The notes under the pieces were generated by a model, which worked only from the letters and a program-made list of their open reading frames with translations, made no database searches and was not told where the DNA came from. A DNA stretch of 64,000 nt from Protoeuglena noctilucae (taxonomy: Eukaryota), in the NCBI GenBank assembly GCA_958009085.1, contig OY253671.1, forward strand, positions 124,001 to 188,000, given 5' to 3'. This document shows, piece after piece, positions 1,639 through 43,852 of this stretch. Each line of letters opens with the position of its first letter. The first letter of the stretch is position 1. The position numbers and the translations under genes are program-made.

Positions 1639-5695
<4,057 letters not shown>

Positions 5696-5944: not shown

Positions 5945-7460
5945 TCAGCGCGTGAGCGTCTTGCCGGTGTTGGTCTTGGGGCCCGCAACGGCCAGCGCCT
6001 GGCCCAACGTCGACTTCTCGAGTGCGTCGAAGTCCTCGTTGGGGCACGGCTTGCCCAGGTTGGTCTGGTGCTCGTTGTAGTCCTTCGCCCACCGAATGGT
6101 CTGGGGCACCATTCCGCACAGGCCAGGGTTCATGTGAACGGACGTAACGACCATGCCCGTCCTGCGCGCACATGATAGCACAGCGAGACCTTAGAGACGC
6201 GGCCGACAGCGCCAGCACTGGCCGCACGCACGCATGCATGCACACCCGCACACCGCAGCGCAGCGCAGCACAATACATCCCAGCGCCTCTCACTTAGCCA
6301 CCGGGTAGAGGTTGCCCTCGAGTTTGTTGGCTGCCAGGGTCAGCTGGTTGAGGTTCTCGGAAATGGCCACCCACTCCTCCGGGATGCCCCCCGTGAACTC
6401 GTTGTACGCGAACCGCAGGCGGTAAATATGTTTCATCTTAGAGAACTCCGGGATCTGCGGGCAGTGACGCGGAATAAGCTGCGACTAACCCGTTGCAACC
6501 TCGTGACCACCTCGCGCACCCACCCGGCCCGGTCCGCGCCTCGCCACCACAGCCTCTCTATTGCCACCGCAGCTGCGCGTCTCACCAGGGGCCCGCCCAG
6601 CGTGAAATTGTTCTCGACCTTAAACTCCTCGAGGTACTCCAACTCATGCACGTTCCTGGGGAGACCTCCCGAGAGGCAGTTGAAGGAGAGATCAAGCTCG
6701 ACCAGGTCCTTGAAGCACTTGGGGAACCAGTCGGGGATCGGACCCGTCATGCACGACCTGCGGGGGTGCGAGGGAGGTCGCCAGGGTCGCTCACCCGCAC
6801 ACGACGCTTTGCTGAGGACATCGACTGCATATGCGCACCACATGTGCACGTGGGCTGTGGATCAGGGTCGCACACTATGCTCCGCTCCTAGCACAGACCG
6901 CATATGGCCACATGAGCTGTCGCCATGCCGCACCCGTCCATGTCGAACTCGCGGAGGTGCGAGAAGACGCACAGCGGCTGTGGCACCGGCCCCGTGAGGT
7001 GCAAGTCGCAGAGGTGGATGTTGGTGACGTAGCCGTCGTAGATGCCGTTGTTGATGGAACTGATGGCCGGGCCGCGGCAGTACATGTGGTCCCAGTTGCC
7101 GCGCCAGTCGGGGCCGCAGGGGTCGCATGTGCCGATCGGGGGACAGGTCCAGGTCCGGAGCCCCTGCGAAGGTGCGAGAATGCGGCCCGTGGAGACAGGT
7201 CCAGGTCCGGAGCCCCTGCAAAGCGGTGCAAAGGCGAGCGGGTGCCGCCCACACTCGCGCCCCGGGGCTGTCCCCGAGGGCTGGCCGGGAGCGCGGTGGC
7301 GCGGCTTGCTCACCCACGCCCACTGCGGAGAGCGGTTCTCGTACAGCTTCTTGAACGCCAGGAGCAGCTCTATCTGGTCGGGGCGCGTGTAGGCGCGGGC
7401 CAGGCCAATAGCCATGCCCGCCAGGGTCCCCACCGCCAGGGCGGCCCTGAGGAGCAGCAT
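5945..7460 (-). CDS. Secreted plant-type extracellular LRR protein (PGIP/RLP-ectodomain-like), 5 exons
   Basis: Signal peptide MLLLRAALAVGTLAGMAIGLARA and Cys-rich N-cap. Repeats LVELDLSFNCLSGGLP, IYRLRFAYNEFTGGIP, LNQLTLAANKLEGNL. C-cap NPGLCGMVP. No TM segment seen. Confidence 0.8.
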
Positions 7461-8001
7461 CGCGAGAGATGGACGCGGCAGTCGACGTATCGCCAAGAGG
7501 TCACGCTGGGTATGGCAATGGCGGAGTCCTCGCGCGAGGCCGTGGAAGCAGGCCAGCACAGGGCGTTGGCGGGCAAGTCACCTGCCTGTCCGACCACGTC
7601 CGCGCCCGACATCGGGTCACGCGCACCCCTGCGCTTCGATGCTTCAATACAGGGGGCGATGAGGGCACTTACGGCTCCCCAGCACCCGCGGGTCGACCGG
7701 GGGGATCGCTGTGGGGTCTACATCTGGGCCTCGCGCGCGACGGGGCCGTTGACCCCCGATGCGCCTCCTTCTCGGGGTTACTGTCAATCACGCGCAGGTT
7801 CTGGCGTAGAGAAACGTTGAATTGCCCTGTGGATTGGGCCGGGGCGGATGCCCTTCTCTTGCGCTTGGTGCCAGGTCAGCAGCGCATCGAAGAGGCAGCG
7901 GGCGCGGCTGGCTGGGTCCATAACAGCTCTTTCGTTCGTGGCTTGATCTCGACGTACGAGCCGTGAATTTCTGGACCCCAGCCGAGCCAGGCGCGAGCAC
8001 C

Positions 8002-10938
8002 ATGGCGTCCCACGGCGCGCCGGAGAGGGCCGCTGTCCGCCAGCAGGTTCTCCTGCAACATCTGACTCCGGTGAGGGCATGCGGATCCCCGCGCATGGCT
8101 TCTGCGCGCGCGTCGGGACCTGGGACGCTCGGCGCCGCCTGCCCGCGCGTGGTGGCCGTTCTGCGCGAGTCAGGGGCGCGTTTCTGTGACCTTTTGATCG
8201 TGTTATGTTGGGATTGCCGAGGGTGTACGGAAAAAGCCGCTGATGGTCTCGCGGGAGCCGCGACTGGCCGGCCCTCAGTTCGGAACCGTTTCCCTCGCTC
8301 TCGCGCCACCCCGGACTTGGAAGCTCCCTTCGCGAAACCCATGTAGCCCTGAAGTACCCAAATCGCGTTGTCGGAGGACTCCCGCGGGCCCGGCGCGTGC
8401 TTTTCCCCTCCCTCAGCAAATGCCTCTGGCGCGGAGCGCAGACCGCACCGTGCGGGCAGCGATCGTGTGCTTCCGACGCTTGCATCGACGAAGACGCGGC
8501 CATCATGGATGACCTCGTGCGCGCGGCCCCGAGATCCTCGTTCTGCCTCTGCTCGCAGGGCCAGGGCCCCGTCGCCCTCCCGACGAGCGTGGGTGACTCT
8601 GCGGCTTACGAGCGCTGCATCGGTGCGGCGGACGATGTTGTCGTGGTCGCTGCGCTGCGCAGCCCGCTGACCAAGGCGCGCCGGGGCATGCTGAAGGACA
8701 CGAGCGCGGACGACCTGCTCGCCGCCGGTAAGCAGCGCCGCCCGGCCTCAGGACTCCGCGGTTTGATGCGTAGCATAGTGTCTGACGCTTTAGCTTCACT
8801 CCCACACCTCCCTGCTCCTGTCCCGTGTCGGGGGTGTTGCCGGCAACGCTTCTGCGCCCTCGGCGCGACCCACCCTGCGCGACCCACCCGCAGTGTTAGA
8901 GGCGGTTCTGCAGAAGACGGGCGTGAACCCCGCGGACGTGGGCGACGTCGTGGTGGGCTCGGTCCTGGGCCCTTCGTCCCAGCGTGCCAACGAGGCGCGC
9001 ATCGCCCTCTTCCTCGCTGGCTTCCCCGACATCGTCCCCGTGCGCACCGTGAACCGCCAGTGCTCGAGCGGGCTGCAGGCGGTCGCCGACGTGGCCGCGG
9101 GCATCAAGGCGGGCTACTACGACATCGGCATCGCAGGAGGGGTCGAGACCATGTCGCGCAACCCCATGGCGGTGAGGAGGGAGCAAGGAGCTCTAAGCGA
9201 GGGGTTCATTGGAACTCGGCGGGAGCTAGGTTTTGGTGATTGCGTTTTGCTTGTAACGACGCTGGTGCCCGGCAACCCCCACGGGAGTGCGCGAGTGACC
9301 GACCCCCGTCACCAACCCCCCGTCGTCGTCACCGCTTGCAGTGGGAGGGCGGGATCAACCCCCGCGTGAAAGACGTCCCCCAGGCCAAGAGCTGCCTGAT
9401 GCCCATGGGCATCACCTCCGAGAACGTGGCCGCCAAGTACGGCATCGCGCGCGAGGTGCAGGACCGTTTCGCGGCCCTGTCGCACGTCCGGGCCCACGCG
9501 GCGCAGCAGGCGGGCAAGTTCGTCTCGGAGATTGTGCCCATCCGCACCAAGGTCAAGGTGAGCGATTTCGAACGGCTGCGGCGGTGTTGATTGACAGCTG
9601 GGAGCATCCACTAGTGCCGGAACGCCCACCCACCACCACGCCACCCGCCCGGCCACGCTGAAGTGATGACCCGGGTACCGGGTGACCAATTCGATACCTG
9701 CGTCGACTTAGCTGCGTACTTTGTTCATCTCGACTGCAGGACGAGAACGGGAAGGAGCATGAGGTGACCGTCACGGTGGACGACGGCGTGCGGCCCGAGA
9801 CGACGGCCGCGTCCCTGGGCAAGCTCAAGCCGGCCTTCTCGGAGCGGGGGACCACCACGGCGGGCAACTCCTCCCAGGTCACGGGTGAGTGGACGCGCGG
9901 GGTGATGAGGTGTTGGGGTGGTGGGCGCAGGTGCAGTGCTAAGTTACTTGGGTCAACACTTGTCCATGCCAGCTGGCTCCGCACATTACCCCCACCGCCC
10001 CAGCGACGTCACACCTCACATCCCGTGCCACCTCGCCCCACCGCAGACGGCGCCGCAGCGGTGATGCTGATGCGCCGTGCCGAGGCCGTGCGCCGTGGCC
10101 TGCCCATCCTGGGCGTCTTCCGGACGGCGGCCGTGGTCGGCGTGGACCCGGCCGTCATGGGCATCGGCCCCGCCGTCGCCATCCCCGCCGCTGTGCAGAA
10201 GGCCGGTCTGCAGGTGAGACGTCGCATGGTGTGGGGTCGGCGCAGCACGGGTGCGAGCACTGCCGATGCACGATGCACGCGCGTGTGCTGGTACTGCGAG
10301 CACACACGCCTGTGCGTTTGCATTTGATGGCCATGCGCGTGCATGGTGCATTTGGCAGAGCCAATCAGGACGCGCCTTGCACCCCACACCGCGCCCGCCC
10401 CCCTCTTGGCCACCCTGGCTGGTCCCAAGCAGACTTCCCGACCTTTCAAACTCCCACTCTTTCATTGGCCTACTTTGATCTCGAAACTTAGTTATCTCTG
10501 CCCCCGCAGCTCTCCGACATCGACGTCTACGAGATCAACGAGGCGTTCGCCAGCCAGGCCACCTACTGCGTGGAGCACCTGGGGCTGGACCCGCAGAAGG
10601 TCAACCCGAACGGCGGGGCCATCGCCCTGGGGCATCCCTTGGGCTGCACGGGTGCACGACAGGCGAGTGCCACATGGGATGGGCTTGGATGGGCTCGGAA
10701 CGGTGGTGCGGGCTCGGTGTTGGCGAACGTGACGTGGCGCTCTCACCCCGCACAGGTGGCGACGCTGCTGCACGAGATGGGCCGGCGGGGCAACGCGGCG
10801 CGCTTCGGGGTGGTGTCGATGTGCATTGGGTCTGGGATGGGCATGGCGGCCGTGTTTGAGGCGGGGCCCACCGTGGACCCCTTGCGCAACGCCAGGCCCA
10901 CCACGCACCACGCGCACCTGTCCCGGGACGCGGCGTGA
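8002..10938 (+). CDS. KAT2: Peroxisomal 3-ketoacyl-CoA thiolase (KAT2/PED1-like)
   Basis: Exon 1 [21 protein letters not shown] carries a PTS2 (RQx5HL). Catalytic motifs NRQCSSG, NEAFA, GHPLG and SMCIGSG present. Confidence 0.93.
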
Positions 10939-13914: not shown

Positions 13915-16900
13915 TCAGACCCCGAAGTCGCGCGCAAGGAACTCCTCGAGCGCAATTTCCTCCAGGTCCTGCTTCCTCTCGTGCGTCTTGCTGACCTTCT
14001 TTTTCGGCAGAACGCTCCGGAACATGACGGGCTTGTCCTTTTTCTTGGGGACGGGCTTGTCCAATGCGCGCGCAAGGGACGCCTTGGCCTTCCGCGCGCG
14101 CTCCTCCACCTGCTCCGATATCTGCGGAGAGAAGTGAGATCGGGAGCGGGGTTGGAAATACATGGAGTGGGAATACATGCAGGGTAAGAGCAAAGTGGAA
14201 CGCGTGCCCAGTTTGTGAAGAGCAACGACGAGCCTCAACATGCAGCTGCGATACATCATTCGCGCAGCTTGCTCATATGCTTCATATGTCTCCCCTCGAT
14301 CACACCACACGCACAACTCACCTCGCGCTCACAACTCTCCTTTCCAACACCCGCTGTCGCTCACCTTGCGCTCCCGCGCTTTCTGCCTCCGCTCCTTCTC
14401 CCGCGCCTTCTCCGCCTCCATCAGCACGTCGCTGGGGATCTCCGCGATGTCCGACAGGTACCGCTCCATCCGCACCTCGATCGCCTTGAGCATCGAAATG
14501 GTGTCCTGCGCCCCGTCCTTCTCCCCCAGGCACGTCTCGAACACCTCCTTGACCTGCGAATGGGAGCGAAAGTGTTGCAATCGACCGATGGAAGCATCGT
14601 GCAATCGCATACGCGTCAACAGAAGGGACCAGGAGGCCAGCAAGGGTGAGCCACCGTGCACCGCCCGTCCCACCGCAGCTCCCCTCTACCACACGCATCC
14701 GCTGCCACTTCACAACATACGCACTGCACTGCACATGCTTCAGCATTGGCAGCCTCGCAACCCCGAGCTGCACAGCCCTCTCCCATCTCGCTCTCGCTCG
14801 CCTTCTTGTGCAGGTCGTCGAGCGTGATGGACCCGGCCCCCTGCTCCGCCACCCCGCTGATCTGCGCCTTGCCCTCGAGCGCTTTCACGCGCTCCCGCTG
14901 CGCCGCGATGCCGACCTCCAGCGCCGCGATCTGCTCCTGCAGCGACTCGGTTTCCGCGTCCATGCGCTCTTTGGTCTCTTTGAACTTCAGCCGCAGCTCC
15001 TCCAGCTGCTCCTCCGTCTCCTGCGCGTTCTGTATCAAGAACAGGTTCTGCTCCTCCAGCTGCGTGAAGACCTCGAGAAGCTGCCCGGGAGTCTTGAAAT
15101 ACATTGGCTCTTGCCAGTCATCGGGCCCGAGGTCCTTTGGGGGCATCGGGGGCCGGGGGCGGTCGCGGATCGCCTCGTAGGTCTTCCGGGCCACTGCCAG
15201 GGCCTCCCGCGCACGCTCTTCTTCCTGTGAGGGAGAGGGAGGGGTGACGGTGGGTGGTGACGGGCGACGGTGGGCGCGGGTGGTGTTGCAAGAGTGACAG
15301 GGGTGGGGCTGGGCATGTCTTGACATCCCGGGCACCATCTTCTTGCTGTCTCTGAACACCACGTGATTTTGACTCACCTGGATGGTCCCACACAGTCGTT
15401 CGCCTCCCACCATCACCATCACCATCACCATCACCATCACCATCACCATCACCATCACCATCACCGTCACCATCACCATCACCATCACCACCTACCCATC
15501 TCACCTGGATGGTCCCGGCATTGTCGAACGCCTCCTGCGCCTTTACCAGCACCTCGTGCGCCTCGGCCTTCCTCGCGTCCAGCTCCCGGCAGTCCCGCTC
15601 CCACCGGTCCATCCGCTCCGCCACGATCTTGCGCTTGCGCTGCTCCTGCTCCTCGAAGAACTCAGGCTGGGGGCGAGAGGTGGGGGTGGGGGGTTGTGGT
15701 GGGGGGTGCGACGAGAGTGGTAACGAATGGGTGTTAGGCGAAGCGGAGTGAGGGTGATGGGAGGGCGAGCGGTGGGGGGATGGTGCAGGGCGGTGCGAGG
15801 CTAAGGGGGTTGATGAGCTGAAGCCGCACGCTGGGGGAGGTGTGGGTGGCAAGCTGTGCAGCACCACGCCTTGGTGGCTAGAAGAGGGACTTATACTTTT
15901 GGCATCTCTCATCCCATGCCCATCCCATCCTCACCGGCGTCAGGTTGTCGAGGAACTCCTTGTATGTCTTGCACTCGTTGAGCTGGTCCTCGTACTTGGT
16001 CAGCTCGGCGTTCAGCGCCTCCTTCTGCTGCACCAGCTTCTTGATCTCCGCCAATCGATCCAACTGCGCGACGAGGAGGGTTCACATGCAGTGTCAGAAC
16101 CCAGCGCATCAGGGCTGCGACGGTCGACATGTGAGGATCCAAAGCGGAGCCGAACAGACCCATGTCTTACCAAATAAGTGAAAGACGCTGAAACTAATCA
16201 GACCAGTTTGTCATCAACGCCCACCCGCACCCAATTACCCACCCCTTCCACACACACCGCATTCACCGTGCATCACACCGTCCACCCGCACCTTGATCTT
16301 GGTCTGGATCTCTGCCTTGGTCTGCGCCGTCTGGACCTTGTCGCGATCCTCCGCGAGGAAATCGTCGAATTTCTGCTGGTGCTGGTCCAGGAGCTCCTTG
16401 GAACGCTTCAACGCCTCCTCGCGCTGTGCCGCACGCTCCTCGAGCTTCCGGATCTCCGATTTCTTCGTGTCCAGGCTCATCTGGACCAAGAAGATCTCAC
16501 GCTTCTGCGGAGTAGAGAAGGAAGGGTGGTAGAGTGAGTAGTGCTCACTCTGGGGGAGTCGAGGGAGAAGGTGCAGGTGGGGCTTGCTGGGGAAGCGGGT
16601 GCTGCTGGCGGGAGGTGCAGCAGAGACCCGAGGCGTGTCGCGTCGCGACCTCTCATGCTCGGGGCGCGCACGGCACCGGTCCCAAGTCCCCAGCACGCAC
16701 CTTGGCGATGAAGTCCGCCATGCTCTCGCGCTCCCCCGCGCGGTGGTCCGTGGGCATCGTCGCGGCCGCCGCGGATATCTCCTTCAGCGCCGTCCGCGCG
16801 GTCGTGCGGTCGTGGACGTCGAGCCCGCTGACGTCAATCGCGGCCATGCGCGCCGAAAAGGTCGACTTGTCCTTCACGGAGGCCTGCAGGTTGCGCTCCC

Positions 16901-20353: not shown

Positions 20354-20979
20354 AGGAGATGGGCTGGGGTGCCAGTGAGCGATTGCCGGCTTCTGTGCTG
20401 TCCGGCAGGTTGTGTGTGTTGTCTGACGTGGGGAGCAAGTGGCACTGCTGCAAGGGGGTGTGGTGAACGGGCCAGTGGGGTTTGAGCCGGCTATGTCCCA
20501 AGCTCAGGTTGCTTACTAGAATGGGTCGCTGGCCCCACGTGCGGCTGCGGGGCAAGAGCTGGTCGGCTTTCAAACTGCGAGCTGCTTTTGAAAACGCCCT
20601 CGACTTGCAAATGGGGTCCGACTGCCAAAGTAACCACGGATGGCTCCGGTCCTATGCTATCTTTCGAAGCGTAAATATGCTAGTCAGCCAGCAGGTCCCA
20701 TGGATCCGGTCGTTGCAGGGATGCTGTCGTCATGGCCGCACCGCACACGCAGAGCGAAAGGCGCAACAAGGTGTGGCGCACGGCGGGGATACGGAGGTGG
20801 CTTACACGCGGCTGCCGCGATGCAGGATGAGAGAGGTACGTCAAAGGGCCTCGGGACTGCCACGCGAGGTGCTGGAGAGATGAGCCAGGTGTTGTGCACC
20901 CGAACTACGGCCGTGAAGCAATGACCGCCAGGCACGTACGGTATCCGCCACCCCGCACGCCAGCGGCACATACGCTCCA

Positions 20980-21129
20980 TCAGGACAGTGTTACAGCGCC
21001 ACACGTGCCATCAAGACAGCGCTGTAGCGTGGCACGCCTTATCAGGACAGCGTCAGACGTCCCATCAAGACAGAGCATCAGGCGTCCCATCAGGCCAGCG
21101 CTGTAGCGTGGCACGCCTCCTCAGGACAG
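20980..21129. repeat. Degenerate 23-31 bp minisatellite overlapping the desaturase stop codon
   Basis: tcaRgMcag core at 20980, 21011, 21042, 21065, 21090 and 21121; cagcgctgtagcgtggcacgcct occurs twice. Confidence 0.85.
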
Positions 21130-23473
21130 AGGCACCTCCCGCCCATGGAGCCACGCAAACTGCGCCCTCGGCACCGCGCCCCTCTTTCGCGCCCGCTCTC
21201 TCCTCTCCTCTGCTAGGTCCGCCAGCCGATGGATACGGGAAGCGTGCTGCGGGGGTGACGAGCGCACACGCATGAACAAACCCTGCTCACCGACCACACC
21301 ACTGCCCACCCACCCACACCCACACCCACACCCACACCTCTCACCTGCATCAAGAACTCCTGTTCCCTCGCAGCATCCCCCCTCAGCCCCTGCACGTCCG
21401 CCACCCCCCACCGCGCCACCAAATGCTCCACAATGCTCGCATAGTCCCGGGCCGTGTACACCCCCGCCGCCTCCGCCACGGTCGCATAGTCGTCAAACAG
21501 AGACCGGCCCCGGTTGGCCTCCGAGTGCACGCCGTCGTCCATTAGATGGGCCGGCATCAGGATGCCCTTTCGCATCATGTCGCCGAACGCCAGCACCGCG
21601 CCCTCGGGGTCCCTGCGATGTGGAGGCAAGCGAGGGAGACATGGGGCGGTGGCGGTACTTGCATCGGCAACAGCCAACCCTGGATGCGATGCGGTGCTTG
21701 CCTCGCGATGCGCTGGTGATGCATGCCACCCACCCACTGACCTCTGCATGACCTGCCCCACTCGCATGCCACCTCACCCACCCCTCACCTCTGCATGACC
21801 TGCCCCACGATGCGCTTGTACGCCTCCTCGTGCCGCGCCTCGTCCGATGCCACCAGCCCGCACAGCCTAGCCAATGCACCGTCCCCGTGCTCCTTCGCCA
21901 GTCTTGCGGTGTTGCCGTGGGACACCCGCGTGGCCCTCTCCTGGAACGACGTGTAGACGAAGCAGAGGTACGGTATGTTCTCCAACTGCGGATGGAGGAG
22001 AGAGGGATGGGAGGGTGACCACGCATCCACCGCAACACATTTTAAGTCACTCTAATGAACGCACAACACCACACCTCACCTCGCCACCTATGCCCACCTA
22101 TTCCCTCATCTCTCCCAGTCACCCCCACAAGCGCTTCACACCACACCGCATCGCACCTTAGGGTCCAGCCCCGCCCCAATGAGCCTTTGGATGGTGCTCT
22201 CCACCGCGCGCATGTCCACGCGTCCGCTCAAATACAGCCACTTGTGCAGGGCGTCCCCGTGTCGATTTTCCTCGGCAGTCCACGCCCTTGTCCACCTCGC
22301 CCACGCATGCGACTGCGCCCCCGTCTCGTCCTGCACTCGCGGAAAAGCACAAAACGTAACCGTAGCACGAAACGTGACTTGATGTTCCTGTTCCCACACT
22401 GTTCCCACAGATGCGACATTCCCACCGCAGTCACTCAATCGTCGCACGTCGGGCGCAACTATACCGTGTCCCACACGCCCTGTCAGGCCCTCGCATCCCC
22501 CACCTTGGTCCCATCCAGCAGGTTAAGCATGTTCATGTAGCTCGGGAGCGCCTCCTCCGTCACCATGTCCCCCACCAGGGCGACCAAGTAGGCGTCTGGC
22601 AGCTCCCTCGCCCGAGCACGCAGCTCCCGGACCTGGTCCTCGAAATCCGGGCCAGCCGCATCGGGAAGCAAGTCCTGAGGCTGCCTGCGGGACGACGGGA
22701 GACGAGCGGAGCGACATGAGCATCAGTGTCGGCATGTTGGGCAGCCGCTTGCAGCCCGGGCGTTGATGCCCGTCACACGCCCCCGCTCAGTCGGCAGTGT
22801 CTAGACAGCGACTGAGAATGTCTAGACGTGCGATGGGTACATGTCATTAAATGACAGTCGATAAGCACCCAGTTAGTGATGCCTGCCGACGCACCAATTG
22901 GCTTTGGGATCCTTGAGTAGAAGCAGCAGGGATTCCTCGGCCCAGGGCGTCAGGCTCTGGATGACGTCGAACCCTCTCGCGTGCAAGCTGTGCGCCTTCT
23001 GTCCCCCGATATACACGTAAGGCCACTTCCCCAGATAATCTGGCCGCGGAGGCAGGCCGAACGGGTCCAGCCTGCGTGCGTGCCCGTCGGTCTCTCGGTC
23101 CGCCTCTTCAACCGCCCCTGCCGCAATCTCCGTCGCTTGGGTATCTGCAGACGGTAGAGATGCATTTCGCCTCACGATCGCGGGGCTCGAGCTCCCCGCG
23201 CCGCCCCAAAGGCAGGGCAATGCCACAAGTCATGCACGCGTGCGCACGCGCGTCGTCGAGCCCCGAGTCGCGCAGCGGTTCGAAGACGGATGCAGGACAC
23301 GGGGAAAACTTCCTCGCGGTGCGGGATCGCCCGCGAACTTCGTCACCTGTGTGGGCCACACGCGTCGCCACGCCCTCCGCGAGCATCCGGCGAGCTCTGG
23401 GCGGCCGCCACCCCCGCCGTCCAAAGTTCCCATCGCTAGCTACCGAGCGCGAGCAGCTTGGCTGCGCGGACAT
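21121..23473 (-). CDS. FAB2: Plastid acyl-ACP (stearoyl-ACP delta-9 type) desaturase
   Basis: [44 protein letters not shown] di-iron motifs. Transit-peptide-like N-terminus. Confidence 0.92.
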
Positions 23474-26639: not shown

Positions 26640-27607
26640 GGAGACCCATCAATGGAATTTAGCACAATGGTTCGTTTAAGGTGGCCGATGGGCCATGTGC
26701 GGGTCCCATGCGCAGGGAAAGGGGCCGAGATATCCGTACATCAAGGTCATGCCGCGCACTCAGGAGAAGCCTGATGCCACGGTCGGCGACATCACCGCAG
26801 TAGGAAAGACCGACCGGTCAGAAAAGCGGGACTCTGCTGCGCATACCCGGCGGCTCGAGTGTGGGAGCCCCTGGGTTTGTGTGCGGCTACAGGTGGGCAT
26901 TGCGCGCTCCCGACGGCTTGGCACAAACAAGAGGCAATTCGAGCTAATCAACAAGCATCTCAGGAATGCATCGGCAGTAGGCATCGGGACCCACAGGCCC
27001 TGGGCGCGAGCTGTCGGGGCTTGCATCGGACAGCACTGGGAACCGCAGATGCGCCAGTGGGCTCGGCCTGCGCCAACACCCGCAGCGACCGTCGTACCAG
27101 TCGTATATTTTCTCACCTGGGGCCCGCTTGGGGAAGGCTCAGCCCCACGCTGGACATCTGCGTTATCAACCAGCCGACGATGAGGGGGGGGAGGTGCAGC
27201 AGCGGGAGGCAGCGAGGCTTCGGCTTGAAGTGGGCTGGGGCGGGGGTGAGCACAGATTATCGCGTCGCCAGCAGTTCCAGCAAACATGATTCTGACGAGA
27301 GGGCGCCCGCCTCGCGCGTGAATCCGCCAACGCCGTCGCGGCCCAGCTCAGATTTCCCGCGTGGAATTGCCCTCCGATGTCCACTTAACTCTGAATTCAA
27401 CCGCGCTGGCCCTACACTGGCTTACAGCGGTGCTGAGGCGCTCTCCTGGATTGCTGACGTGCCTTTGATCAACGCGGTCGTCAGCGAGCTGCGCAGGGGC
27501 CTTGCCATTGCCCCGAACCGCGGCGCCTGGGCTGCAACTGCGCGGCGACGCTCCTCGTGCGCCCTGGAGCCGCATCCAACCCGTTCCGCGCGTCCGTGGT
27601 CGAGGAG

Positions 27608-32728: not shown

Positions 32729-33050
32729 GCAAGTAGCTGAGCTGTGTTGCTTTGGGAACTGCTGGTTGGGCATTGCTAGTTGGCGGGTCCTTGGCTGTGT
32801 TGCCACGATCGCGTCTCCATCCCACATTGTTTCTCCTGCGCCCCCGTTTGCTCTTTCTTACGCGTATTCCCTACGCCGCTTCCTTGTCCAGAATTGCCCC
32901 ATCCAAGAGTGCGTGCTGTTCGCAACGCTTCCGTGCCAGAGAGCGCATTTTCAAGCAGAGCCAAGCATTGCTTGAAGCAATCGTGCAAGACGAGCTTAAA
33001 AACCTCAACCGACGCCATTATATAGCAACTTCCCAGGCCAGCCCGCCTCC

Positions 33051-34672
33051 TCAGTCCTCGCCCCCCTCCTCACCCGCGCCCTCTCCTGCACTCCCACCCT
33101 GCGGCCCCTCTCCCTCGCCCCCGCGTGCACCCGCCGGAGCAGACCCCGCGTCTTTCTTCCTCCATGTCCCCGCCTTCTTCATCTTGGCAATGATGTCCTT
33201 CGCCACGTTGAATATTCCCTTGGTGGGCTCCCCGCACTGCGCACAGACCTTGCTTGATGCATTGTGCTTGAGCGCGCAGTGCTCGCAGAAGTAGTGCTTG
33301 CAGAGCGTGACCACGGGGTCGTCCACCTCCGCCCACGGCTGCCTGCGGGGCGGTCGGAGGTGAAGCGGATGCAGGGAAGAGCAAAACTCGGCATGAGACG
33401 ACGCTTGTGCAGTTGCGGCACGCGACGCGGGCGGCGCAGCAAGCGCGACGGAATCGATTGCATATCATAATACAATCTTTACTGCTACGATTGCAATTAC
33501 GATAGCGACGTCGCTCACCTGCAGAGGAGGCAGGCGAAGGGGAGGTCGTCGTCCTCTGCTTTAACCTTCCCCTCTCCCTCCTCCTCGCTCCCCGACGCCC
33601 CGCCCTGCTCCATGCGACGCTCCATCTCCGCAGCCTTGCGCTTCTGCTCCTCCTGCCACTCAAGCTCAATCTGCCACCCGCTCTGCAGTCACGGAACACA
33701 GACGAACCCGTCAGCGAGCTCGCAATCAACCAAAGCTGCCTCGCGAGCGCACCCGCGTCCGCCTTTCATTGCCTGCCAGGTCGCATGTGTCAAGTTGCAC
33801 GTGCAAAAAGCATCGCGACGTGCGCGGGCGTGGAACTCAGAGCTAATTCCGCACCTTGTAATCTTCGCGGGTGTGGAGGAACTTGCAGGCGTCGCCCCAG
33901 CCGCAGTAACCAGTCTCCTTGTAATCCTTGCACACGTCCGGCTGGTAGTCGAACCGGACGCTCGAGCGGATGGCCGTGGACGCGCGGAGAGGGCCGTGAG
34001 CGCCGCGGCCCTTCTCAGAAGCAATCGTACTCTCCATCCGGAAGCCCGCGCGGTAGTCCTTGTACGCTGCCTGGCCGCGGTACTTCCCGTCGTCCTCCGC
34101 CGGCTGCTGCCCGGCCTGAAGCACCTTCTCTCGCAACGCGCGGCCATCCCGGTCGAACTCGGTCTCCGTCTGCAGCTGCCGCGTCGCGCCCTGGTCCCCC
34201 GACTGCTGGATCATCCTGCGAACGCGTTGTCACGAAACGTAAGAACCCATCCAAACACGCCGGGCGACCCCCTCGGCAGCCGCCGACCGAGGGCCCCGAG
34301 CACATCGTCCAAAAGTGCTTACCTCGAAGCCTCGAAGGCGTGGACCTCCGCCTTATCCGCTCGCTGAGAGGAGAAGGCGAGACCTTTCCGCTTGGCTTGT
34401 CGGGCCTCCGGAACTGCGCTTTCCTCGCCCACGGCGTCCTCCGCATCGTCCCGCTTGCGTATGTTGGCCCGGTTGCGCTTCTTCACGAACGTGGGGCCGG
34501 CGCTGGCAACGCCTGTGGCAGACGAATGTTGCGAGGATCGTAGCGCGGCGCGGCGAGGCGAGATGGCGAGCTGGGAGAGGGAGCGAGCTGAGAAAGCGAA
34601 CTCGTCCCTCCCGGAGCACTCACCGGTTGCGGAGGCATCCGCCCCCGACGCTGCCCTCTCTTCTTCACCCAT
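33051..34672 (-). CDS. CWC24: CWC24/RNF113A splicing factor (CCCH zinc finger + RING)
   Basis: [66 protein letters not shown]. Confidence 0.93.
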
Positions 34673-34866
34673 GTCCCTGTCGAGGCTCGCTCGCGGCCAG
34701 GGAACTGCGCCAATTTGCAGAGCAGGTTGCTAGTCGTAAACGCTGTCGCGGTCGTGTGAACAACACTCGGAATGAGATGCTGTGACAGGGCAGCACGCCA
34801 CTTTTGCTGACGCACGCGTTCCTTGCGCAGTAGACGTCCTTGCTTTGCGGCGTACTGTCACTAGGT

Positions 34867-36253
34867 TCAACCCGCCAGCTGCTTGCTCCTTGCGACTGCA
34901 GCGCTCACGGCCGCCAGCATCGCCCGCCGGACCCCCGCATCCTCGAGCGCCGCCACAGCTTCAATCGTCGTCCCGCCGGGCGAGCACACCTTGTCCTGCG
35001 TGCGCCGAGGGAGAGGCCGGCGTCACCACTGGTAGCAGCATGCACGATATGACGCCACCCCGCCTGCCAGTCCTCAACACACCCCACCTTGAGCTCCCCC
35101 GGGTGCTCCCCCGTCTGCAGCACGAGCTTCCCCGCTCCCATCACCGACTGCGCGGCCATGCGCAGTGCCACGTCCCGCGGCAGCCCCGCCCGCACTCCGC
35201 CATCCGCCATCGCCTCAATGATGAGGAACAGATACGCCGGTGCGCTGCCGGCGACCCCGACCACGGCGTGGATCTGCCGCTCCTCGACCTCGCAGACCAG
35301 CCCCATGGCCGAGAGCAGCGCCGACAGAGTTGCCACGTCGCCTGCCGTCGCGTGCGTGCCCCTGCGGCCGCGGGCGAGGGGCGATGCCATGGCTGACCGG
35401 AAGAAGCATGTTTCTTAGTAAGTGCAACTGGTCAGCGCGGCCCGCACCGTGTGATGCTGCAGACGCCCGCCTGCACTGCGCAGGGGGTGTTGGGCATGAC
35501 ACGCAGGAACCGAGTCTTCTGCGGGAGGGCGGCCTCGTAAGCGGCGATCTCGATACCGGCCGCGACGGTCGCGATCTGCGGGTACGGAGGCGCGGGCTGG
35601 GTCGGCTGGGCAGCTAGCCTGTGTGGGCGTGGCTGGCGTGGCCCACGGTGACAACTTACCACGTGGTGGGGTTGGACGTGAGGCGCGAGCTCGTCGACGA
35701 CTTTGGACATGACGACCGGCTTGACGCTCAGGAAGATCACGTCGCATGCACGCGCGACTTGTTGTGCACCGCCGCCGGACGCGGCCACCAGCGTCACTCC
35801 TAAGGACCTGGGGGACACAGTGAGCAATGATGGCGAAGTCCGATGAAATCTTCAGCACGGAATATGGTTGGCGGGCGGCAGAGAGACCCACCGGAGTGCC
35901 TTGGATTTGGGTGACGAGACGTCCCGCACGCACACGACGACGTCCTCCGGGAGGCACGTCCCCGCGGCGATGAAGCCCCCTATCATCGCCGTCGCCATGT
36001 TCCCGCCGCCGATGAACCCGACCTTAACTCCCAGGGGCTGCCGAGGCTCCGCCTCGGCGCGGGCAGCGACCCATCCGCGCTGCACGCTGGCCCTGCACTG
36101 GCCCCGATGCGCCCCGATCCCACGCTTCGGCACGCACCATTCGCTCCCCGTGCGAGCCAATGACAGCAGAGGCCTATGACGATGGCATGGCACCCCTCGC
36201 GGCGACGCGCAGGGGCTGCACAGTGCGTGTGCTTTGGGGACCGAGAGCGACAT
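34867..36253 (-). CDS. proC: Pyrroline-5-carboxylate reductase
   Basis: VGFIGGGNMA, RVMPNTP, GSAPAY, ADGGVRAGLPR, HPGELKDKVCSPGGTT. Confidence 0.93.
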
Positions 36254-36549
36254 GCCCAGCGCGTCCCTGGGAATAATGGTCGTGCGCAGAGCCAACTGGG
36301 ACACCAGAATTCAGAGTAGTCGGCGCACGCATCATTTCGGGGAGAAATGGCATCGCGACCTCAACCGTTGCTCAGTCGGACTGGCCAGACTCGCGATCCC
36401 CGCGCACTTCACACGTTCGCAGTCAAATCGACTTCTCTGACAACGGCGCTTGCATCGTGGTGTTCAAAACACTCGTAACGACCCCTCCTTGCCGCGCCAG
36501 GTGTTCGGCTCTGCGGGGAGCCCCCGCCCGGCGGGGCACGCGGTTCACG

Positions 36550-39500
36550 ATGTCGTGCATGTCTGTGCAGCTCCCGCGAGTGGCGGCGGGCCAGGGGGTG
36601 AGCGGTCGGACTCCGGGAACGATGTGCGCGCTCGCTGCAGCGGCGAAGCGGTCCCCGGCGCGGCGACATGGATATTTTGTTTCTCGAACGATCGCTGACC
36701 AAGATCAGCGGAGCTCACGGAGCCCGGGGGGCGCGACACGGCGGTGTCGAAAGCGTGACCCTGCCACCCCGCATAACTTCGCGAGCGGTGCATTCGTGGC
36801 CGTTTTCTACTCGCAGTTGCTACCCGTGTCGTGTCTGCCGTGCGCGCAGGTCAGGAATGCCGGGATCCGATGCCGGCGCGCGCTGGTGCCGGCGGGGTCC
36901 CGCGCCCTGTCAAGGGTGGCCTACCAGGCGAGGCCGCGGTCCGGTGGCGCCGCAAATCCCGCATCGATGACTTTTGGCGCAATGTCGAAGTCCCTGAGCG
37001 ATCTCCGCGCGGACACGCCGTGCACGGGCGCCATGCACGCCAAAAAGTGTCCTCCGGGCAGTGACCTCGCGAACGGCACTCTACGCCTCGCAGGAGCGGA
37101 AGAAGGAGGGCGACGGCAAGGATGGCAAGCCCACGGCGGATTACGGATCTCGCAGCAACGAGCAGGAGGTCCTCATGGACCTGGTCGAGCACGGCCTGCT
37201 CGACCAGCAGCAGCAGAACCACGCCATGCCCGTTGAGGTCGTGGAGTCGTCCCCTAAAGACAGGAGCGGGGCCACGGTGAGAATCGGGACGCTCACAGCT
37301 CCCGCAGGACGGCACGCGACGTCCCCTGCCACTCTCACTCCGTGCGTGATATGCGCTATGCCCAGTGTGCCCTTGCTTCGCCCTCGCCAGACCACCGCGG
37401 CGCTCCCCGAGGACGTCATGCCATGCCCCAACATCCGCCACCTCCTGGCACCCCGCCCCTCGCCCTTCGTGGTTCACAACAACTACGGTGGGGGGTTCGT
37501 CCACGACAACGACCTCGTCACGCTGCAGGCCCTCAAGTGAGTCTCAGATTCCAGCTTTCCCACCTTGCTTCCATCAAGATGCCTTTTCCATGTTAAACCC
37601 CCACCTGCCAGCACGGTGCTGGTGGGCCCCAGCCGTCATGCCCCCCATCTCGCACGTCGCTCTCCCACCCCTGTTCATTCATCAACAAACACCGCCCCCT
37701 CGCAGGTTCGCGAGCCAGCCCGCCCAGACCCGCCCGGCCCCGGCCGCTCCCGCTCCCGCCCCCACCCCCGCACCCGCGCCCGCCGACGGCTCGAACCCAA
37801 CGTCCCCGTTGTCCAGCACCGCAGCTGACATGGTGGCGTTGGACTTGAGCATCCAGCGACAGGTCCGCAGCGCCGACACGCGCCTCCCCGAGCGCGCCGC
37901 GAGCCAGAAGGTCCTGCCCGCCTGGGCCGTCCGTGCGGGGGCCCGCGAGACCATCTTCTACGATCCGGGGGAGGTGCGGGCCGCCATCTTGATCTGCGGG
38001 AGCCTCTGTCCCGGGCTGAACGGTGAGGGGTGGTGGGGTGGGAGGGGAAGGGGTCGGGAATGATGGGATGGGGCTGAGCGTGGCGGCGGTGACGGTGCGC
38101 GTAGTGGGATGGGCGAAGAGAGAGGGTCCTGCTGGGGTTGTGTCGTTGTTGTTGGCAATGCCCCAGGCGCAGTGCCCCAGTCGGTGCTTGGGACCTCGCA
38201 TGACGAGCGCCCTTACCCACACTCGCCCCTCGCAGACGTGGTGTGCGGGATGGTGCGCAAGCTGGAGGACTACGGCGTGAGGGACGGCAACATCCTGGGG
38301 GTGCGGTACGGCCTGCGGGGCCTTTACGCCAAGGGGTCGCCCAAGCCCATCGCCCTCAACAGCAGCATGGGTGAGTGCGCATGTGCTGCGTGATCGCCCT
38401 CATATAGCTGTCTTCGTGGACTAGTATCAGTGCAGTGCCTTATAATAGCAACCCCCCTACCCAATCGGAACATAACCCTCTCATATCTCTGTCCCACACA
38501 CAGTGGACCAGGTGCTCCGTGAGGGCGGCACCATCCTGGGCACGTCCGTGGGCACGGTCGACATCAACGAGGTGGTCAAGCGCATCGACATGCTGGTGAG
38601 AAGACGAGGGGGGCAAGATGCAAGTGGTGGGGTTGGAAGGGGGGGGAGAGGAGCAACGATGGCGCAGAACACGGCTGGCAGTGCCGAAACTGCACGCATG
38701 CCCTACGCAAGCATGCATACACTCGCGACCACCCTCCCGATCACTGTCATGTTCCCCACCCTCCCAGACACCATTACACTAACACCCCCCCCCAGGGCAT
38801 CAACATGCTCTTCGTGATTGGCGGCGAGGGCGGCCACATGAGCGCCTACGAGATCCAGCTGGCCATGCAGGACAACGACGTCCCCTGCACCGTCGTGGGC
38901 GTGCCCAAATCGATCGAGAACGACATACTGCTCATCGATCGCACGTTCGGGTTCGATACTGCGGTGGAGGAAGCCCAGAGGGCTCTGTACGCGGCAAAGA
39001 CCGAGGCTTTCAGCGCCTACCGGGGCATCGGCATCGTCAAGCTCATGGGGAGGCAGTCGGGGTTCATCGCCATGCAGGTGAGTGCATGTGGGGTGGGGTT
39101 GTTGGGGTGGCAGTCGGGGTTCATCACCATGCAGGTGGGGTGGGGTGGTTGGGGTGGGGTTCGTCGCTATGCAGGTGAGGGCAGTGGGGGTGGGGTGGGC
39201 TGGGGTGGGAATGAGGGGAAGAGAAAGGGTGGCGGTCAGGATGTCAGCAAGTGTACTCCCCCACTCACATCTCTCCACATCTCTTCACCCACAACCACCG
39301 TCCGCTCACCCACATCCTTCACTCCCCACCCCACCCTCCCCACCCTTCATCCCCCACCCCTCCCCACACCCTCGTCCATCCCTCCACCCCATCACCCCAC
39401 CCCATCAACCCGCCTCCCCCACCCCTCCAACCCCCACCCATCCCCCCACCCTCCCCTCACCCATCCCCCATCACCCCACCCTCCCACCCCCACCCCCAGG

Positions 39501-40863
39501 CCGCCCTTGCCTCCGGCGTGGTGGACGTGTGCCTGGTCCCAGAGGTCCCCTTCATCGTGGACGGCCCAGATGGCCTGTATGCATATATCGAGGAGGTGTT
39601 GGAGAAGAAGGGTCACGCCGTCATTTGCGTGGCCGAGGGGGCGGGGCAGGACCTCATACCCACGGAGAGGGACGTGGTGAGTCAATTGGGGGATCTGAAT
39701 TGGGGGATTTGATTGTAAATATCCATGGGATGTGCATGGGATGTGGTGAGTCATTTGGGGCAGGACCTGATACCCACCGAGAGGGACGCGGTGAGGGGGG
39801 ATGGGGAAGGGGGTGGGGAGTGTTGAGTTGCTGTGATTGATGGGGATGCGGTGAGGGGTTGGGATGGGAGAGGGGGGGCAGAGTTGCATGGGGACGAGGG
39901 CGTCGCCAGCCTGCTCCTCTCACCCCTCACCACCATCACCCCGCTGCTCTCACCCCCGCCATCGCCTTCACATTCCACGGCCCCGCTCACCCCCCTCCCC
40001 TCTTGACCACAGCCCCAGGACGAGTTCGGCCGCCCCCTGTTAAAGGACGTGGGTGCCTTCTTGAAGAAGGGCATCAAGAAGCACTTCAAGGGAGACTGCG
40101 ACATCAAGTTCATCGACCCCGCCACCATGATCCGCGCCATCCCCACCACCAGGTGAGCGACGAGCGATACTGTGTGCAGTGCTGGTGGTGGTGGACGGGG
40201 CTAGGGTTGCCATGATCCGAGCCATCCCCACCAGCAGGCGAGAGCGATGCATGGCGCATTGCGAGTTATAGCAACGCAGTTAGCAAAGCGAGTTTTGGTG
40301 AATGGGGATAGGGTTGCCATGATCCGAGCCATCCCCACCACCAGGTGAGAGCGATGCACTGTAAGCGAGTGGGGTGATTGGGGCTAGGGTCTGCATGTGA
40401 CCCCACCCTCTTTACCACCTTCTCCCTGTGTTACACAGCCCCACCAACTTCCCCCGCATCTCTATCAAAACATCCTCGCCCACCACACCCACCCACCCTC
40501 TCTATGCTCCCTCGCAGCGGTGACCGCATCTACTGCAAGATCCTGGCCCACAACGCCGTGCACGGCGCCTTCGCGGGCTACACGGGCGTGAGCGTGGGTC
40601 TCGTCAACACCCACTACGTCTACCTCCCCTTTCCGGTGATAGTCGCCACCTCCCGCCGCGTCGACCCCCGGGGCAAGATGTGGAACCGCCTTCGCCACGC
40701 CATCGGCCAGCCCAACTTCGTGCCCGGCGGGGACTTGGAGAGGCACCTTAAGCAGATCGAGGCGCAGCGGGCCACGCGGCTGCAGACGCTGTCGCCCCAC
40801 CCGGCGATCCGCGAGCACCGGGAGCACCTGCAGGACGACTGGGCGTACACCAACCAGGCGTGA
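36550..40863 (+). CDS. PFK: Plant-type ATP-dependent 6-phosphofructokinase family protein (PFK4/5-like, plastid), with atypical active-site residues
   Basis: RAGARETIFYDP, CPGLNDVV, GGTILGTS, TFGFDTAVEEAQRA, KLMGRQSGFIA, VAEGAGQ, AHNAVHGAFAG. Confidence 0.9.
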
Positions 40864-41198
40864 GATAAGGGAATGGGGTTTGCACTAAGCAGAGGAGTGG
40901 GCTTGCACCGGCCAGGCTTGAGGGAAGGGATGGGTCAAGTCTACACAGACCAGGCCTGAAGCGATGGCTGGGCTTACACGGGCGCCGTGGAGTTTTGCTT
41001 TTGCTTTTGTCGCTGCCTCTGCTGCGCGCTGCTGTGCCCGTGCCCCATACGTCTGCGTCATCACCCCTTGTCTACTACCAGAGACGCTCGCATGCGTCCG
41101 TCGATGCATTTTGAAAAGCCGTGACACCATTTTCTTGTTCAAAAACTTAACAGCCACAGCCACCCCACCATGCCACGCTCAGGTCACCGCTCACGCAA

Positions 41199-43852
41199 TC
41201 ACCCAGGCACCGCCGCTGCCACCCCACCCTCGCCCCCGCCCTCTTCTTCCCCAACCGAATCCTCAGTGTCAGAAAACTCGCTCTCCCCTTCCGCCACCGG
41301 AGCCAGGGTCCCAGGCACAGCCCCCACATCTCCCTTGACGCCCACCCCACCACCCCCATCGCCACCCCCAGCCCCCTTCCCCACCCCCCGCCTCCCCGCC
41401 CCGCGCCCCCCACCCCTCGCCGCCAGCCCCTGAAGCAACGCCCCCCGCGCGTACACCGCCTTGGCCGCCCTAAGCTTGTCCTCCCATCGCTGCACTGTCT
41501 TGGACGCAGGCCCCTGCCTCAGCCCCTCCCCGCCCTCCGCCCTCGCACCCGCACCACCCGCACCGTCGCTCTCGCCCCCCGGGCTCCCCTGCCGCACCAC
41601 CGAGACCCCCGCCTGGGCCAACAGGGCATCCCGCACCCTCAAATCCCCCTCCAGTTCAAACACCCGTGCCTCCAACGCCCTCACGCGGTCCTGGTGGGAC
41701 TCTTTGAAGTTACCCAGGGCGCTCGACCGCACTTTGAGTAGGCGGCGGCACTCGGTCAGCTGCTCTTCCAAAAAGATGACCATGTAGCTGCGGTGGTGGG
41801 GATGTGGGGAGCTGGGTCTCATGTTGCCTTCATTGCTGCCGCTCACCGCAGCAGCTGGGAATGCTAGCGCTTACCGCAGTTGGCTCTCACCCTCCCCTAT
41901 CGCTACCGTGCATGCGAGTGGTCATGCCGCATTCCCACTCACCGCAGTTGGCTCTCGTCCTGCCCCTGCATGCGCGCCTGCTCCTCGGCCACCATCACTT
42001 TGCTCCGCATGGACGAGTTGAGGCGGTTGGCCTTGCGCAACTCCCCCTCCGTCCGTTGCAGCTGCAGAGAAGGACAGGCAGAGGGGTGAGCAAGCGGCTG
42101 GTAAGCACAGAAGCACCGCAACTCCACCTGCCCACAACCGCCACCCCCACACGCACACGCACCCGCACCCACCACTCCCACCTGCACCCCCACCCTCGCT
42201 ACCACCCCCAACCCCCCCCCCCCCCCCCCCCCCCCGCGCGCCGCCCCACCACCCCCACCTGCACTGCCACCTCGTCCCTCTCTCCCTCGACCTTCCTCCT
42301 TTCTTCCTCCAGCCGTTTTATGCGCTGAGCCTGTTGCTGAATCTCAGCCCCCCGCTCCTGCAGCCGCGTCAGCAGCTCCGACACCTCGTCCTGCTTCTCC
42401 TTGGCCGTCCGACGCTGCACCTGACTCAGCTCCCGCACCGCCGCCACCTGCACAGGGGAGGTGTTATGGAACAACGATCGGGTTTGTTCGCGCGGCACAC
42501 GTGTCCTGTCAGCACTCGCCAGAGCTTTTCAGAATGGTCATCACACGTCAACGCACCCTAAGGTGCCAAGTAGCAGCCCTGCTCTGGGCATGCACGCAGC
42601 AGACAGTATGTGCTGACATACTGTCATCTGCATGCTGGTGCCATTACCAACGACACGACAAGACAGCTGCAGTAAACCCACCCCTCACCTCCGTCTTGAG
42701 GTTGGCGATCTCCTGCTGCAGCAGCTCGATCCTCCCACGCACGACGGGGTGCGTGAGCGGGTCGACCCTCGCACCAGGGCTCGCGTGGCGCGCGTCCCGC
42801 CCATGCCCGTCCGCCGCGTCCCGAGAGTGCGTTGTATGCCCCGCGCCGGTCGCAGGGGCGTGCGCGGGGCGGGAGTTGCTGGAACCGGCCCCAAAACCCC
42901 CAGTCATGCCCTCTTGTGCTGAGGCTGCCAACATCGCAGGAGCGCGGCCCGGTGTAAGACCTAGCCCGAGGCTCTTGCGCCTGCAGAGATGGCCGGGTAG
43001 GTGTGTACGGTAAAGCTGAGTTTTTTTTCGAGGTTTGGGACAGCAGGGTGGCGGCAAACACTGGCCAGCACCCTGTCTGGGTGGTGCCACCGTGTTCCCG
43101 CACGAGCATCTCGCCTGGATTTGCCCTTGGCCGGCGCCGTCTGCATCCTGAGGGCGCTCGGGGCCTTCTCAGGGACGCCGCGGGTGCTGCCGAGTGTCGA
43201 CGCCATCGGGTCGAACTCCGGGCGCGGCTCGACGCCTTGCTCCACTGCGCGGGGGCGGATACGACGCATCACCACGTCCGTGATGCTCCTGATGCGTTCC
43301 ATGTAGCGGTAGGCGTCCGCGTAGTTGTTCTTCCTGCGCGGCAGGGAGGCAGCTTTTGATGGAGGGCGCGGAGAACGAGGGGAGGCTGAAGATCGCAGCG
43401 CAGGATCACAGCATGAAGTAATTGATGCAACGGCAATTTCGGCGTGCGAATCCGGGCCCGCGCACCCTAGCATGTCCTGAACAACGATGTCGAAGTGGAC
43501 CATCTCGTCGTCGCTCGTCAGCCGGTCGAACGTCTCCTGCTGGTGCTTGGCGAGAGCGTCGAGAGCCTCGCCGAAGTTGCTCTTCCCGGCGGCCTTCTTC
43601 ATCGCAGCCGCCTGCGCGTGCGCCTCGTAGGTCGACCGCACGCTACGGACCGAGGAGCGCTTCTGGGGCGCCACTGCGGGGATCGCAGGAGTCGCAAGAC
43701 GATGATGTAACCGTTTGGTGCAAATACGAGCGGCACGCGGGCGGAAACCATGCGAGAAAGACCACAGTCGGGCTGGCACATGCCGGGCATGTTCCGCGCG
43801 CACCGGTCGACCCTGCGGTCCTTCCGGACGTGAGGCGCTCGTCGGTCGACAT
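41199..43852 (-). CDS. Hypothetical coiled-coil protein
   Basis: Chain of spliceable exons with heptad-rich peptides (RIELLQQEIANLKTE, LTRLQERGAEIQQQAQRIKRLEEE, VRALEARVFELE). No family recognised. Confidence 0.6.
42212..42235. repeat. Poly-C tract (poly-G on the transcribed strand) in an intron
   Basis: More than 20 consecutive C. Confidence 0.9.

Follow-up and report, generated by a model that had tools for sequence, protein, structure and literature searches.

Repeats that reiterate a splice site across an exon-intron border are already known from single genes. Junction-spanning minisatellites with 5' pseudo-sites occur in human F7 intron 7, CBS intron 13, 6-16, lamin B2, and PDGF, and the most upstream donor in such repeats wins (Borensztajn et al. 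2006, PMC1557585). Here we describe "junction echoes," copies of an exon end and its splice site lying in the adjacent intron, in a 64,000-nucleotide window of the Protoeuglena noctilucae assembly (contig C4, OY253671.1, positions 124001 to 188000) and in a wider sample of the same intron-rich, 65% GC genome (26.3 Mb in 27 contigs). The F7 intron 7 pseudo-sites are the closest known system, since in both cases the first unit lies over the exon-intron border, the donor is reiterated within the intron, and the upstream donor is used. F7-type repeats are known from a handful of genes and consist of 5 to 25 near-identical monomers, whereas echoes occur in about 2.6% of introns and mostly comprise two or three degenerate units. 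Unlike F7-type repeats, echoes also form at acceptors, preserve the exon half far better than the intron half, and carry an excess of silent differences. Held against the F7 type, then, echoes span the junction, repeat its splice site, form head-to-tail units (as shown in many cases), and use the upstream donor at three of three donors in a phosphofructokinase (PFK) gene, but they are not near-identical monomers of variable number (variable number tandem repeats, VNTR). What is new is their frequency and their coding-type divergence, rather than a new splicing system.

Several other processes share individual features with the echoes. The internal gene duplication treated by Gao and Lynch in 2009 reportedly involves short duplications within genes that are common and take in exon-intron borders; to our knowledge, neither strict anchoring at the boundary nor coding-type divergence between an exon and its intronic copy forms part of that description. 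Tandem exon duplication with mutually exclusive splicing yields two similar exons in one gene that differ silently. We rejected this possibility for the echoes, which are partial copies with one splice site and a matched length of 11 to 58 nt (first set of echoes, see below), and whose replacement changes are random by BLOSUM. Introners, in turn, are dispersed families of whole introns. Echoes have in common with the Introner elements of green algae (PMC9860276) the presence of repeated sequence in the introns of a compact algal genome, but each echo matches only its neighboring exon (0.3 matches per 1,490 introns when exon ends are compared with another gene), and we discarded a mobile-element origin. 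Proto-splice duplication, in which an exonic AG|GY is duplicated and a new intron is created (Lehmann et al. 2010, PMC2891723; Hellsten et al. 2011, PMC3265369), likewise involves short tandem duplication of splice signals. Echoes differ in that an existing junction is duplicated and an existing intron grows. A first-pass annotation of the window had named intron gain as a proposed outcome of tandem duplication across splice sites; however, the proto-splice motif fell within only 13 of 72 matched parts and RNA from the PFK gene contained no new intron or joint of that kind, and we set this idea aside. Searches of an open-access library, judged from titles and abstract openings, brought up no report of genome-wide junction echoes or of silent-biased junction copies.

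Junction echoes are frequent and anchored at exon boundaries

Outside the window, we sampled 20 blocks of 40 kb on 20 contigs at positions set beforehand (800 kb, 284 genes, 1,490 predicted introns), with exon boundaries and frames taken from a hidden Markov model (HMM) gene model self-trained on those blocks. The anchored echo search used exon bases only and ignored the splice signal. As a null, each exon end was looked up in another gene's intron of similar length, and as an interior control the anchors were shifted 30 nt into the exon. We found 28 donor and 12 acceptor echoes, compared to 0.3 and 0 per null replicate, in 38 of the 1,490 introns (2.6%) and 20 of the 284 genes; extrapolation gives about 1,250 echoes genome-wide. 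Against these 40 boundary-reaching copies, the interior anchors gave 1/1,327 and 0/1,371 matches. At this frequency, the lengthening of introns and the choice among near-identical competing splice sites become measurable, as does the question of whether an exon and its copy share one history.

Echoes were strongly clustered, with 33 same-gene pairs versus 7.3 after intron-length matching (p = 0.0005). The other introns of echo-bearing genes were also longer (148 versus 116 nt), more C-poor at the 5' end, and more G-poor at the 3' end (2 of the 48 first-set echoes, whose intron halves were too short, were dropped before counting). The window belongs to an echo-rich region, with echoes in 8 of 121 introns and a further 15 echoes in the 80 introns of the preceding 40 kb, while both flanks of another echo-rich block had none in 159 introns.

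The first-pass annotation had proposed an active short-duplication process in which only boundary-straddling events survive. The first half of this proposal held up, in that survivors leave coding sequence intact: exon-exon repeats had an offset that was a multiple of three in 31 of 31 cases, and copies reached the boundary rather than lying inside the exon. The restriction to boundary-straddling events did not hold, however. Duplications internal to introns and scoring at least 20 bits were present in 36 of the 1,490 introns, 28 of them not derived from echoes and 20 of them also free of short-period arrays, while shuffled sequences gave 0 to 2. The comparison proposed at the outset, whether echoes are any commoner than intron-internal duplications, thus came out in the sampled blocks at the same order of magnitude for both (20 to 28 introns versus 38), which counts against a process confined to boundaries. 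Both the intron-internal duplications and the in-frame exon-exon repeats are as expected if tandem duplications arise at random and selection then filters them. It is very probable that junction-spanning tandem duplications are tolerated because the coding copy stays intact. Donor echoes outnumbered acceptor echoes in this unbiased set (28:12, p = 0.017), a surplus that fits a rule in which the upstream donor wins and an upstream acceptor would be the riskier duplication.

Two loci in the sample illustrate the more elaborate forms. A predicted DEAH-box helicase gene on contig C8 (L036:4100-5400 in assembly G000, ~324-325 kb) carries donor echoes of 46 to 51 nt in each of three successive introns, where the spacers are very AT-rich. 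On contig C12 (L050:6090-6540, ~306 kb), five donor units form a young higher-order array, with periods of 54 and 106, that shows repeated unequal exchange.

In a subset of genes, long introns are rich in G and poor in C over their 5' half and rich in C and poor in G over their 3' half, a pattern that recurs in many introns genome-wide and is most extreme in echo introns. End-to-end pairing or a splicing-enhancer role is a candidate function of such introns. A short-period repeat also recurs in echo-gene regions (L036 near 3870-3940 and 4830-4910, L180 near 8600-8720, and the microsatellite in Table 1); it has numerous matches across the genome, and a single gene may contain it in both orientations.

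Echoes within the window

All eight echo sites named in the first-pass annotation were recovered by an exact-repeat scan and a log-odds scan, with offsets of 47 to 192 nt, and one additional, decayed donor echo was found outside the range it had covered (Table 1). A low-complexity match in a doubtful predicted exon near window position 2015 was removed before counting. Pfam supported the PFK, acyl-ACP desaturase, and DUF4200 genes, the last of which we take to be CFAP100-type; the LRR gene had only a weak LRR_1 match in exon 3. A protein search with the PFK exon found named relatives in Haematococcus and Closterium. Together with the occurrence of this DNA in marine metagenomes and the presence of the DUF4200 gene, these relatives make a marine green alga the likely source.

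One of the eight sites turned out to be of a different kind. The copied stop codon of the desaturase gene, previously grouped with the splice-site echoes, belongs to a 3'-untranslated region (3'-UTR) minisatellite whose first unit happens to overlie the stop; the array is covered without gaps by one RNA contig, and only one comparable case occurred in 800 kb.

Table 1. Junction echoes and associated sequence features, in window coordinates
Feature	Position	Strand	Basis or remark
LRR gene, start of exon 2 (22 nt) with its predicted working acceptor	7142..7167	-	repeat scan, gene model
LRR acceptor echo, intron 1, 52 nt upstream	7194..7219	-	whole units align 44/55
DUF4200 (CFAP100-type) gene, exon 4 end and donor	15500..15516	-	repeat scan, gene model, Pfam
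6-bp microsatellite, 13.8 copies, expanded between DUF4200-gene donor and its echo	15408..15490	.	
DUF4200-gene donor echo, 127 nt into intron	15373..15389	-	repeat scan
Acyl-ACP desaturase 3'-UTR degenerate tandem array, first unit overlapping stop codon	20964..21134	-	PF03405
Desaturase stop region and copy, offset 79	21096-21118 / 21017-21039	-	
Desaturase exon 5 end and donor	21787..21808	-	repeat scan, gene model, PF03405
Desaturase donor echo, 47-nt tandem unit	21740..21761	-	41/51 aligned; in wild DNA contigs
PFK exon end and working donor, intron 8	39046..39082	+	used in RNA contigs
Two donor echoes, PFK intron 8, offsets 57 and 97	39103..39182 (copies from 39103 and 39156)	+	
PFK exon end and working donor, intron 9	39643..39681	+	used in RNA contigs
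Donor echo, PFK intron 9, offset 114	39757..39795	+	differs from exon at 2 silent sites and 1 replacement site
Shorter sub-echoes, PFK intron 9	near 39738 and 39843	+	
PFK exon end and working donor, intron 10	40125..40157	+	used in RNA contigs
Two donor echoes, PFK intron 10	40210-40242, 40317-40349	+	one silent difference from exon common to both
Coiled-coil gene, exon 6 end and predicted donor	41941..41956	-	repeat scan, gene model
Coiled-coil donor echo, offset 68	41873..41888	-	repeat scan
Additional decayed donor echo	exon end 4376-4400, copy 4282-4306	-	
C-poor/G-poor half-intron examples	39300-39499, 30860-30957, 31337-31508		

Since the copies look allelic and the assembly has gaps (200 N at 19.9 to 20.1 kb), echoes might be an artefact of two haplotypes joined or read ends repeated. 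We compared the assembly over window positions 20900-40880 with contigs from two marine DNA runs of an independent study. In the desaturase gene, these wild contigs run across both the stop and the donor echo, and in PFK they do so across the echoes of introns 8 and 9; the intron 10 echoes are tiled by three contig pieces, with breaks at a 32-bp exact repeat. They differ from the assembly by one substitution with no gap listed, and neither wild sample contained length variants of the echoes. The artefact explanation is thus largely refuted for the five sites within the compared stretch, those of the desaturase and PFK genes, whereas the LRR, CFAP100-type, and coiled-coil sites are located elsewhere in the window; overall we consider it extremely improbable.

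The two wild samples were near-identical to the assembly over this interval, while others under the same species label shared no sampled words with it, and the assembly accordingly represents a near-clonal lineage within a broad species label. Run X13, which shared 0.05 of words and might have represented a diverged lineage, was counted as no evidence.

Echoes are degenerate tandem units with a sharp identity cliff

Echoes had initially been described as copies of 16 to 40 bp. Such copies exist, but gapped alignment revealed most of them to be the best-kept half of longer units: echoes are degenerate head-to-tail duplications across the exon-intron junction, with units of about 30 to 220 nt, usually in two or three copies. 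Whole units aligned at 46/57 positions in PFK intron 8 and 83/125 in intron 9, alongside the desaturase and LRR pairs in Table 1. A second copy was present in 20 of 72 echoes, with at most four copies counted, and the sampled blocks contained several near-perfect, recent units. The intron halves were homologous in 27 of 67 testable echoes, at an aligned identity of 0.70 to 1.0 (5 of the 72 had intron halves too short for this test). The remaining 40 were skewed toward intron-half homology (Kolmogorov-Smirnov p = 6e-4), although the null was drawn from other genes' introns and shared local composition may contribute to this skew.

Identity between exon and copy was 0.94 over the last 12 exon bases and 0.89 to 0.94 at intron positions +1 to +4, then 0.74 at +5 and about 0.45 at +6 to +21, against a background of 0.30. 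It also fell to background just beyond the exon-side end of the echoes. Ends this sharp, together with the 40 of 67 echoes whose intron-side homology is not individually significant, would be expected if a templated insertion of the polymerase-theta or template-switch type had copied the exon end, with the donor motif serving as microhomology. However, templates for such insertions should often sit wholly within the exon, and only 1 of 2,698 interior anchors had a direct copy. Templated insertion also leaves the residual homology in most intron halves unaccounted for, and it gives no reason for the codon-position bias described below. We therefore consider it improbable.

Exons and their copies differ in excess at silent sites

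The most unusual property of the echoes, which the first-pass annotation had not mentioned, is the distribution of differences between exon and copy. We analyzed 48 echoes in a first set and 24 more in a replication set, for which 180 kb was picked beside echo-rich blocks and which was excluded from the frequencies given above; a few slipped anchors are still among these 72. The first estimate of divergence used a composition-weighted score and was recomputed with uniform scores and by simulation to rule out scoring bias. Differences were present at 56 of 302 four-fold sites and 51 of 1,130 zero-fold sites, a ratio of 4.1 (p = 1.5e-4 against 2:1), and a bootstrap over the 35 genes placed the ratio at 2.9 to 6.6. 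In the first set alone the ratio was 5.5 (35/191 versus 24/723). The excess did not depend on the threshold or on whether an echo was in frame, ranged from 3.8 to 4.5 when single blocks were left out, and persisted in the 63 echoes with an intact signal (49/272 versus 44/1,003).

If echoes were ordinary tandem duplications on a single chromosome that selection had filtered, the exon copy would be frozen while the G- or C-rich intron halves mutate and slip fast, leaving only the exon end and the splice signal recognizable. The ratio is then capped at about 2, because the exon is held at replacement sites and the copy is free everywhere; this argument also covers conversion within the chromosome, and simulated neutral echoes gave 1.7 to 1.8. 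None of 5,000 bootstrap replicates fell at or below 2. The intron halves are also several times more diverged than zero-fold sites. Much else is nonetheless what plain duplication would lead one to expect: the tandem structure, the nearly perfect recent units, the equal commonness of intron-internal duplications, transitions that match the neutral 2:1 exactly, a surplus of donors over acceptors if an upstream acceptor is the more harmful, and a replication subset that is not significant by itself. Its account of the silent excess would be that this is partly chance or reflects quicker turnover at four-fold sites. We regard plain duplication as unlikely but as a serious contender.

The excess was concentrated in one class of change. 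The four-fold to zero-fold ratio was 2.0 for transitions and 9.2 for transversions, with C<->G differences at 23 of 269 four-fold sites and 7 of 598 zero-fold sites. This spectrum was unlike that of intron-internal duplicates (9/52; Fisher p = 5e-4 when pooled with zero-fold sites). GC content at third codon positions (GC3) is 0.87, and the third-position C<->G swaps may be the trace of a long period of coding divergence under high GC3. The 60 replacement differences were not conservative (BLOSUM p = 0.48), which argues that the copies are not under protein constraint now. Seventeen introns with multiple copies remained after 3 of 20 were removed for exon-internal repeats or slipped anchors; in these, it was the exon that differed from the copies at 9 silent and 2 replacement sites, and echo-private changes were nearly blind to codon position (14 silent, 22 replacement).

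We also rejected several simpler causes of the silent excess. CpG methylation did not fit, as observed/expected CpG was 0.97 in the flanking exons versus 1.01 elsewhere and CpG loss was not one-sided. Sequence context could be dismissed because the context-matched ratio was 4.2 to 4.4, and present-day translation of the echoes because the excess was equal in out-of-frame echoes and without the proto-splice-motif cases. A close paralog as donor was rejected for PFK, the desaturase, the DEAH helicase, and a gene at C4:111-114 kb, whose best exon matches were 71 to 87%.

A possible origin in exchange between diverged haplotypes

Our preferred reading, which we hold tentatively and at slightly less than even confidence, is that unequal exchange involving diverged haplotypes created or renewed the echoes, which were kept since the coding copy was left untouched. 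The exon half of the second unit would then be a former working exon end from a well-diverged haplotype. Constraint on protein and GC3 would have acted on it until fairly recently, followed by neutral decay of about 4 to 5%. When rare sex or hybridization brings diverged alleles together, unequal crossing-over, one-ended repair, or ectopic gene conversion might join the exon end and the first part of the intron from one chromosome to the exon end, splice site, and intron of the other. An existing echo could mispair again with exon ends and so give rise to arrays, and products would survive where the coding copy and its splice site are intact and the exon-adjacent site is still used. Exchange between haplotypes would account together for the boundary anchoring, the identity cliff, the silent excess, the spectrum of changes, and the arrays. 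An allele is the simplest source for such copies, given a history in which only silent changes were kept and the lack of a close paralog for four genes.

Several observations weigh against this reading. The replication echoes by themselves gave a ratio of only 2.85 (21/111 versus 27/407, p = 0.14), acceptors in the first set gave 3.1 (p = 0.26), and changes private to the proximal echo had no significant silent bias (6 silent versus 9 replacement, p = 0.13). RNA verified predicted exon boundaries and frames in one gene only, PFK. A rough scaling of the C<->G excess, based on 7 events, places the required partners about 0.1 to 0.3 substitutions per neutral site apart, a divergence that is high for one species; at about 0.3, short intron halves of low complexity would roughly be expected to lose their visible likeness. 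No diverged haplotype was present in the two wild DNA runs (one base differs in 20 kb), and metagenome contigs yielded no close relative among the 80 of 561 loci retained, where the best full-length match had 68% amino-acid identity. Likewise, a protein search found no relative above 76% over most of the exon. Finally, old duplications with an exon half maintained by selection would fit these data too, an alternative that we take up below.

If exchange between haplotypes is nevertheless the source, around a thousand introns might hold fossil exon ends of diverged haplotypes, left by repair or crossover errors that resolve where exon homology meets an unalignable intron; we put this forward with similar reserve, a little short of an even chance. 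One haploid genome would then record past sex or hybridization along with extinct alleles, and introns would grow by capturing allelic exon ends. Should the silent excess hold genome-wide, the copies would record lost alleles or parental lineages, and cryptic sex or hybrid ancestry in unicellular algae could be read from a single assembly.

Splice-site use at echoes

RNA evidence came from contigs of two metatranscriptome runs of one study. Rare forms drop out of such contigs, and parts of 20900-40880, including the desaturase donor, lacked cover and were uninformative. The PFK contigs splice at 39077, 39676, and 40152, which is the first donor in three of three cases. None of the PFK joints listed falls at an echo site; contigs lose rare forms, and 31 joints exist beyond those listed. 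That the spliceosome keeps using the exon-adjacent site is thus shown for three donors and presumably applies to the rest. Acceptor echoes, in which the unused copy comes first, are probably silent as well.

The alternative proposal of the first-pass annotation, a system of decoy or alternative sites coupled to nonsense-mediated decay (NMD), is unsupported, given that only first PFK donors appear in RNA and that offsets have no frame bias. Offsets modulo 3 were distributed 21/20/31 over the 72 echoes (chi-square p = 0.57 in the first 48), and the extension was in frame and open in only 9 of 72. The splice signal itself was kept at +1 to +5 in 47, 45, 44, 41, and 39 of 50 donor echoes, no better than zero-fold exon sites.

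This last comparison also bears on the possibility that echoes are old duplications in which purifying selection acts within the intron on the exon half and the splice signal, as a splicing aid, back-up, or decoy, while the exon drifts silently. The copies would then form a class of intronic exon-end elements. Such selection would explain the cliff and the silent excess equally well, and it fits the finding that in triplets it is the exon that departs from the other two copies at silent sites. In addition, echo sites retained GT or GC in 45 of 50 donors and AG in 18 of 22 acceptors, and they scored as well as the real site in 20/50 and 12/22; the good acceptor scores remain odd. However, the absence of an echo joint among those listed and of any frame bias speaks against a function, as does the ordinary conservation of the signal positions. 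Selection for likeness to the exon should also penalize silent changes in the exon and bring the ratio back to 2, and base-level constraint would be needed on each of 72 unrelated sequences, without a mechanism or any sign of use. We consider a conserved function doubtful, more so than plain duplication.

Echoes also have practical consequences, since they mislead gene prediction and break short-read contigs. Our gene model matched 9 of 10 RNA-supported PFK introns once a false 3-nt exon inside intron 10 was merged, with the first donor wrong. Introns of the GC-AG type were frequent (window 10663, 14801, 36928, 42688, and others), and the GC donor of PFK intron 2 was backed by RNA joints.

Other features of the window

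Two further features of the window stood out. A putative CWC21-like gene at 19590-20350 ends in a 54-bp coding repeat rich in Arg, Ser, and Asp, and a 200-N assembly gap splits this repeat. On the minus strand, positions 54273-58100 hold a predicted single exon of 3.8 kb in an otherwise short-exon genome.

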